From the NCBI RefSeq assembly GCF_056712565.1, contig NZ_CM160072.1: 64,000 nt of DNA. The stretch is one strand, 5' to 3'. The notes beneath the pieces are model-generated. The model did no database searches. It was given only the letters and a program-made list of their open reading frames with translations, and was not told the origin of the DNA. Shown here in pieces: positions 13,566-13,892 of the stretch. Numbering within the stretch: the first letter of the stretch is position 1; the number at the start of each line of letters is the position of its first letter. Made by a program: the position numbers and the translations under genes.

Positions 13566-13601
13566 TTGGGGCCAAACTGTCCATATCATAAATAAGTTAC
13601 G
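13566..13601. repeat. Left 36-bp terminal inverted repeat of fimS (9-bp IRL plus 27 bp inner flank)
   Basis: TTGGGGCCAAACTGTCCATATCATAAATAAGTTACG is the exact reverse complement of 13857-13892. Confidence 0.9.
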
Positions 13602-13691
13602 ACAAACTTTTTCAGTTTATTTGTTGGCTTAATATTCTATTGTTATCTTTATTTATAGATGTTTATATTGCATGAGGTGGTTTTTGGAGAG

Positions 13692-13741
13692 AAGAATGAG
13701 GAAGATGCGTCGAGCCACAGAAACGCATCTTCCTCATTCTT
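13692..13741. repeat. Perfect 18-bp-stem palindrome inside fimS
   Basis: AAGAATGAGGAAGATGCG (13692-13709), 14-nt spacer, CGCATCTTCCTCATTCTT (13724-13741). Confidence 0.85.
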
Positions 13742-13843
13742 AGCTTTACATATAGCGGAGGTGATGTGAAATTAATTTACAATAGAAATAATTTACATAT
13801 CAAACAGTTAGATGCTTTTTGTCGTTTTTTAATATTTTTATGC

Positions 13844-13873
13844 TTGAGAAAAAATACGTAACTTATTTATGAT
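13844..13873 (+). promoter_or_regulatory. fimA sigma70 promoter inside fimS, oriented toward fimA
   Basis: TTGAGA (13844-13849), 18-bp spacer, TATGAT (13868-13873); predicted start a few nt inside IRR. Confidence 0.7.
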
Positions 13874-13892
13874 ATGGACAGTTTGGCCCCAA
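13857..13892. repeat. Right 36-bp terminal inverted repeat of fimS (27 bp inner flank plus 9-bp IRR)
   Basis: CGTAACTTATTTATGATATGGACAGTTTGGCCCCAA, exact reverse complement of 13566-13601. Confidence 0.9.

Follow-up and report, generated by a model that had tools for sequence, protein, structure and literature searches.

A fimS phase switch with 36-bp terminal repeats in an ST95-type Escherichia coli genome reads as a mosaic of its own two orientations

The type 1 fimbrial phase switch of E. coli, fimS, is a 314-bp invertible element bounded by inverted repeats of 9 bp. In the stretch of ST95-type E. coli DNA analysed here (the window, 64 kb), the repeats that bound the switch are perfect over 36 bp. 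This raises the question of whether such a switch exists in cells or only in the assembled sequence and, if it does exist, how it would have arisen and how it would behave. The element itself is the already known fimS. It occupies positions 13566-13892, in the order fimE-fimS-fimA downstream of fimB, as placed by open reading frames and by synteny with annotated genomes (Table 1), and fimB and fimE are both intact by sequence within the 64-kb window. Since the fimA promoter is directed at fimA and the core aligns collinearly with assemblies in phase ON, the switch is in phase ON. The identity and orientation proposed in an earlier reading of the letters alone are thereby confirmed. Phase ON was found in just 241 of 4,719 genomes.

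Table 1. Features of the fim switch region in the window.
Feature	Position	Strand	Basis and remarks
fimB recombinase gene	11840..12442	+	ORF; DNA identical to HS13-1 fimB, WP_000790583.1, after the 1-nt shift at 4764
fimE recombinase gene	12920..13516	+	198-aa ORF; DNA identical to fimE of HS13-1, AH21G053 and ST95-32, WP_000044711.1
IHF site I-like match WATCAANNNNTTR	13519..13531	-	Pattern scan; just outside IRL
IRL, canonical 9-bp inverted repeat TTGGGGCCA	13566..13574		Direct reading, repeat search, alignment
OFF-phase patch 1, 27 bp AACTGTCCATATCATAAATAAGTTACG	13575..13601		Inverted copy of 13857-13883
Normal ON-phase core, AT-rich, native coordinates 38-161	13602..13725		Identical to ST95-32 ON
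Perfect hairpin	13692..13741		19-bp arms 13692-13710 and 13723-13741, 12-nt loop; repeat search, 100% complementary
OFF-phase patch 2, 14-nt insertion CATCTTCCTCATTC	13726..13739		Inverted copy of 13694-13707
IHF site II-like match inside the switch	13798..13810	+	Pattern scan
fimA promoter PfimA, TTGAGA-N18-TATGAT	13844..13873	+	-35 TTGAGA, -10 TATGAT; directed at fimA
Normal ON-phase internal flank at IRR	13857..13883		Template sequence of patch 1; holds the -10 box
IRR, canonical 9-bp inverted repeat TGGCCCCAA	13884..13892		Direct reading, repeat search, alignment
fimA major subunit gene	14012..14560	+	ORF; the corresponding position is annotated as fimA in HS13-1, AH21G053 and ST95-32

The sequence from 13566 to 13601 (TTGGGGCCAAACTGTCCATATCATAAATAAGTTACG) is the exact reverse complement of that from 13857 to 13892, so that each 9-bp inverted repeat is continued inwards by 27 extra bases. 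The chance of 27 extra matches between the switch ends is 4^-27. The 36-bp symmetry had been the central claim of the sequence-only reading, and both direct reading and a repeat search reproduce it; alignment with reference switches likewise supports its statement that the canonical repeats are 9 bp. In normal ON switches the 28 bp inside IRL read TTTTGACTCATAGAGGAAAGCATCGCGG, which here are swapped for the 27 bp AACTGTCCATATCATAAATAAGTTACG. The normal inner flanks are unlike each other, with TTTTGACTCATAGAGGAAAGCATCGCGG at IRL against the complement of AACTGTCCATATCATAAATAAGTTACG at IRR in both K-12 (CP010444) and ST95-32. The same reading had noted such a difference for K-12; alignments and palindromic queries extend it to all normal E. 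coli switches. In the window switch the internal recombinase-binding flanks are inverted copies over 27 bp, and the external flanks still differ. The window element shares with canonical fimS (314 bp, served by the tyrosine recombinases FimB and FimE) its position, identical 9-bp repeats, PfimA and predicted IHF-like sites, but departs from it in an identical internal recombinase-binding pair, a length of 327 bp, an extra 19-bp hairpin and the absence of HinfI and BstUI sites. Those two sites (GACTC and CGCG) are lost with the replaced IRL flank, and SnaBI (13855) alone remains. PCR followed by HinfI or BstUI digestion is the usual assay of fimS orientation, and such assays would therefore misreport the sequence found here.

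Alignment with the phase-ON fimS of K-12 CP010444 and of ST95-32 reduces the anomaly to two differences and no more. Outside these two patches the window switch is 100% identical to ST95 phase-ON switches, and its length is accounted for by the loss of 1 nt at patch 1 and the gain of 14 nt at patch 2. When the element was painted against native ON fimS and its reverse complement, which was taken as the OFF phase, every base was accounted for exactly by four segments: OFF 1-36, ON 38-161, OFF 172-187 and ON 164-314. The segments follow one another monotonically, whether numbered by ON or by OFF coordinates. Patch 1 follows the sequence of HS13-1, an OFF-phase genome, as far as 13601, and patch 2 (OFF 172-187) sits between ON 161 and ON 164. 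The terminal repeats are therefore extended to 36 bp because the element is a mosaic of its own two orientations. The boundaries of patch 1 show microhomology of 9 nt (the inverted repeat) and 1 nt, and those of patch 2 of 3 nt (ACG) and 2 nt (TT). The novel junctions are GTTACG/ACAAAC (13596-13607) and AAACG/CATCTTCC (13721-13733), with GTTACGACAAAC and AAACGCATCTTCC as the sequences that span the novel joins.

Patch 2 and the 19-bp hairpin that results from it had escaped the sequence-only reading. The hairpin arises by the 14-nt insertion in a previously unstructured stretch and is absent from all reference switches. As DNA, 13692-13741 folds with -20.9 kcal/mol (z -8.3), against -0.4 kcal/mol for the native sequence. 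Its axis is displaced by 5 bp from the midpoint of the native element, a coincidence of about 4% for a random snap-back. The hairpin was considered as an intrinsic terminator and rejected, having no terminator-like prediction and no U-tract. The possibility that the duplicated -10 box gives rise to a second promoter was also rejected, as such a promoter would consist of just CTGAAA-N19-TATGAT and falls below the scan threshold. IHF-1 adjoins IRL and IHF-2 sits within fimS (PMC9993118), in agreement with the two predicted IHF-like matches in Table 1, and Lrp and Fis sites are assigned to the AT-rich core (placement from PMC9993118). The predicted Lrp-site region is unchanged in sequence in the window, and the insertion alters its spacing to the predicted IHF site II by about 1.3 helical turns.

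To establish how often such a switch occurs, both junctions were sought in public collections. In a BLAST search of 5,426 complete E. coli genomes, no record covered 80% or more of either junction query, exact-pattern scans found zero matches for either junction in metagenome or GTDB contig collections, and no plasmid in the plasmid collection searched carried the variant. The closest ST95 relatives (HS13-1, ST95-32 and the SF-468 lineage) have a normal switch. Symmetric ends of any kind were sought with synthetic palindromic end queries, which give a full-length match only if both switch ends share one internal flank. In about 4,650 complete genomes that carry fim, they yielded just two further switches with symmetric ends: that of AH21G053, whose ends are of the type seen in the window, and that of 537-20, whose ends are of the reciprocal type. 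The comparison with K-12 and other E. coli fimS sequences thus yielded no reference with the same clean symmetry, and the sequence-only reading stands on this point.

These two switches, and a third, are instructive. AH21G053 (NZ_CP196247.1) is an ST95 blood isolate that, outside fimS, differs from the window over the 64 kb at 4 SNP positions and the 4764 indel. Its fimS (567479-567847, 369 bp) comprises OFF 1-150, a base-wise interleave of ON and OFF, and ON 265-314, with the same 36-bp symmetric ends and a central perfect palindrome (..GCATGCGGCCGCATGC..). It is evidently a mixed-phase consensus artefact and no biological sequence. The fimS of 537-20 (NZ_CP091534.1, 4273134-4273443) has an ON left half and an OFF right half, with noise. 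The switches of AH21G053 and 537-20 are noisy ON/OFF chimeras and clearly artefacts of the consensus. In STEC307 (NZ_CP091018.1) a clean 12-nt OFF patch lies in exact register over the PfimA -35, turning TTGAGA into CTGAAA. This is probably a mixed-phase assembly chimera as well, although it may alternatively be a real promoter-killing template switch. Given these three genomes, all singletons, mixed-phase corruption of fimS does occur in complete genomes, at about 3 in 4,700. For long-read assemblies, discrepancies in the consensus of invertible regions are also on record (EC958, Table 2 of PMC4134206).

The remainder of the window offers a measure of its general quality. Relative to its closest relatives, the 64 kb holds 3 private SNPs and one 1-nt indel besides the two fimS changes, where private is defined against HS13-1, AH21G053 and SF-468. 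Relative to HS13-1, whose switch is OFF, it holds 5 SNPs, a T6-to-T5 deletion at 4764 and the fimS changes. No identical genome was found in the RefSeq complete set, and comparison with relatives revealed no damage comparable to that in fimS elsewhere in the 64 kb. A palindromising mutator acting genome-wide, or a generally poor assembly, is rejected on this count of 3 SNPs and one 1-nt indel in the rest of the window.

The private differences merit description in their own right. The homopolymer deletion at 4764 frameshifts the TopAI toxin gene topAI/yjhX (4680-4936, minus strand) at about codon 57. It is private against HS13-1, AH21G053 and all 12 best-matching genomes among the matches listed, and could be a sequencing error or a real inactivation of the toxin. 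The SNP at 38724 is a C>T change of the inner C of a Dcm site, CCTGG, and is synonymous in an Rpn-family gene; that at 48539 (T>C) gives Q165R in hsdR; and that at 59454 (G>T) gives G99C in a Na+/H+ antiporter. All three turn a base into its neighbour and in this resemble long-read consensus error, with 5mC deamination or real mutation equally possible. The antiporter gene (59160-60812) carries two independent hits among near-identical genomes, G99C in the window and an internal stop in AH21G053 at the window equivalent of 59761 (record 613115-614767).

The reading that we slightly prefer, and to which we give an even chance, is that the clean mosaic is an assembly artefact of mixed ON and OFF phases. 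Cells of both phases would have been present when the culture was sequenced, and a long-read layout, consensus or reconciliation step would have carried opposite-phase reads or drafts through the 314-bp inversion, so that segments of the other phase remained at the left end and close to the centre of fimS. The switch in the cells would then be a normal one of 314 bp with 9-bp repeats, and the repeat of 36 bp would be without function. Both anomalies, and nothing else in fimS, are the exact opposite-phase sequence at about the matching coordinate, and a monotonic order in ON and OFF coordinates is by construction a property of an ON/OFF consensus. The closely related AH21G053 shows a coordinate-ordered ON/OFF mosaic with the same 36-bp ends, and 537-20 and STEC307 supply further mixed-phase fimS sequences in public complete genomes. 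The window variant is likewise a singleton that was not inherited, as judged from the collections and from its closest relatives. The position of the hairpin axis is also suggestive, since the phase transitions of AH21G053 and 537-20 fall near the centre too. The other private differences (a homopolymer deletion and 3 neighbour-base substitutions, one at a Dcm site) are typical of long-read consensus error, and discrepancies of long-read consensus in invertible regions are documented (PMC4134206).

Several observations sit less comfortably with an artefact of this kind. The window switch resembles the mixed-phase chimeras (those of AH21G053 and 537-20, and probably that of STEC307) in being built of ON and OFF sequence only, in coordinate order, and in being a singleton. 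However, the sequences of AH21G053 and 537-20 are garbled by noise and either change phase many times or hold one phase in each half, whereas the window switch has four exact segments and three phase switches. When mixed noisy reads were simulated, a toy consensus built from them came out either as the clean majority phase or as an element both garbled and shortened; this column-majority procedure, a crude stand-in for real polishers, never produced the clean two-patch mosaic. Global alignments of ON against OFF under four scoring schemes did not place CATCTTCCTCATTC as an insertion after AAACG. The microhomology at all the junctions (9 + 1 nt and 3 + 2 nt), moreover, is what real template switching should leave. 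A mixed-phase consensus would also be a weak explanation if the source genome were a short-read draft. A k-mer graph assembler could not make junctions such as GTTACG/ACAAAC, which are absent from both phases, and a de Bruijn graph chimera is ruled out by reasoning because the k-mers of the novel junctions occur in neither phase.

The main competitor is that the window holds a real mutant allele of fimS made in vivo by templated DNA synthesis, through template switching or gene conversion, and we hold the chance of this to be a little short of even. The junctions are exact and carry microhomology, the new bases match the inverted sequence of nearby DNA at 27 of 27 and 14 of 14 positions, and neither pairwise alignment nor the toy consensus reproduces the mosaic. 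The 14-nt piece is a pure insertion at which no ON bases are lost, and its perfect small-loop hairpin is a classic product of snap-back or template switching. Tyrosine recombinases form covalent complexes with DNA exactly at the inverted repeats. Replication forks, which on the K-12 map we take to cross the locus from fimE to fimA, would place both events just downstream of IRL, within about 160 bp. Fork or repair synthesis running from fimE to fimA would have stalled or broken at IRL, possibly at a covalent FimB or FimE intermediate or a nick. The nascent 3' end (...TTGGGGCCA) would then have paired with IRR on the other template or on an opposite-phase sister copy, copied 27 nt and returned at the 1-nt microhomology. 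About 125 nt later, a snap-back on ACG/CGT would have copied 14 nt before returning on TT. Template switching is a documented class of mutation in E. coli that is stimulated by covalent DNA-protein complexes (PMC6357072, PMC7202029), and the stimulation by such complexes is stronger on the leading strand (PMC6357072). The lack of comparable damage in the rest of the 64 kb, the intact fimB and fimE, and the ON orientation, which is found in few genomes and fits a switch with weakened FimE-driven ON-to-OFF inversion, are all consistent with a real allele.

The origin of a real allele in templated synthesis does, however, demand two rare events, or one complex event of four switches, within 327 bp, in a stretch of 64 kb with just four other private differences. 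The allele would be a singleton with no relatives that carry the variant, and the sole other switches with symmetric ends are artefacts. A hairpin axis within 5 bp of the centre is left unexplained by random snap-back. The mosaic is like the quasipalindrome and template-switch mutations of E. coli (the Ripley model and the Lovett assays) in its inverted copying, its microhomology and the extended identity of its arms. It is unlike them in that the arms of patch 1 are about 290 bp apart and have just a 9-bp stem in common, that of the inverted repeat, and in that patch 2 makes a hairpin where no imperfect palindrome existed, the native sequence there having no prior structure (-0.4 kcal/mol). 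We give a chance somewhat short of even to the fuller reading that the mosaic is real and arose naturally, by templated conversion involving either the two switch ends or two sister chromosomes in opposite phase, with the second snap-back in the same repair episode; the conversion may have been triggered by a covalent FimB- or FimE-DNA intermediate. The balance between artefact and real allele rests on soft evidence both ways. Taking together the OFF-phase patches, the two chimera precedents and the singleton status, an ON/OFF artefact is at least as likely as a real allele.

An engineered switch, with recombinase-binding elements symmetrised and a hairpin added for a study of FimE or as a synthetic-biology module in an ST95 chromosome, is very improbable. 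Half-site swap mutants of K-12 fimS, made for FimE specificity and cited in PMC6083910 and PMC11316696 (Kulasekara and Blomfield 1999; McCusker, Turner and Dorman 2008), provide a functional analogy for a symmetric switch; as presented through those citations, they are designed K-12 constructs that alter the IRL and IRR flanks that set FimE directionality. The fim switches also serve as synthetic memory devices (PMC2481393). Nowhere in the 64 kb, nevertheless, is there a scar of cloning, a restriction site, a marker or an FRT site, the background belongs to a wild ST95 lineage and has private SNPs, and no plasmid or genome in the searched collections has the variant. A designer would also be unlikely to replace 28 nt by 27 nt and to reuse 5 native nt at the borders of an insertion. 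Least probable of all is an ordinary polymorphism inherited in some E. coli lineage: lineages do differ in fimS, through SNPs and small indels, but the junction BLAST, the exact-pattern scans and the normal switches of the closest ST95 relatives effectively refute this.

What a mosaic switch would do, were it real, can be anticipated from the biology of FimE. The ON-to-OFF preference of FimE is attributed to non-identical recombinase-binding elements at IRL and IRR (PMC6083910, PMC9993118, PMC11316696), as the sequence-only reading had also stated, and FimE is reported to leave OFF-type half-sites unbound (PMC6083910). With identical internal elements, IRL would always be of OFF type and IRR always of ON type, in both orientations. 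FimE would lose its discrimination between ON and OFF at the level of the substrate and would probably work poorly at IRL. FimB accepts both native configurations and should therefore still invert the mosaic switch. The net effect would be like that of a fimE defect: switching would slow down and be less biased, and more cells would be ON. The OFF state could be leaky, since the inverted element keeps the -10 box beside fimA, and the transcription start directed at it, behind a weak -35, CTGAAA. A strong hairpin would also be placed in any read-through transcript from fimE. Inversion independent of the recombinases, which the sequence-only reading had suggested might proceed through the longer repeats, is at best possible in principle and would be negligible quantitatively. 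A repeat of 36 bp is barely above the minimal length for RecA processing, and RecA inversion through it should consequently be less frequent than Fim-mediated switching by orders of magnitude.

The significance of the mosaic depends on which of the two leading explanations holds. As an artefact, it would show that phase-variable inversions corrupt assemblies described as complete, with at least three RefSeq complete E. coli genomes carrying a chimeric fimS, and that extended terminal repeats or new hairpins in invertible elements should not be taken for biology without the reads. As a real allele, it would provide a natural test of how far FimE bias depends on half-site asymmetry, as against the control of fimE expression by orientation. 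It would also speak for site-specific recombinases as triggers of local template-switch mutagenesis at the sites on which they act, and so for a source of switch evolution. This single isolate would then carry a switch devoid of the asymmetry to which FimE directionality is ascribed, probably ON-biased and leaky, in ST95, a lineage in which type 1 fimbriation is important in infection of the urinary tract and bloodstream.
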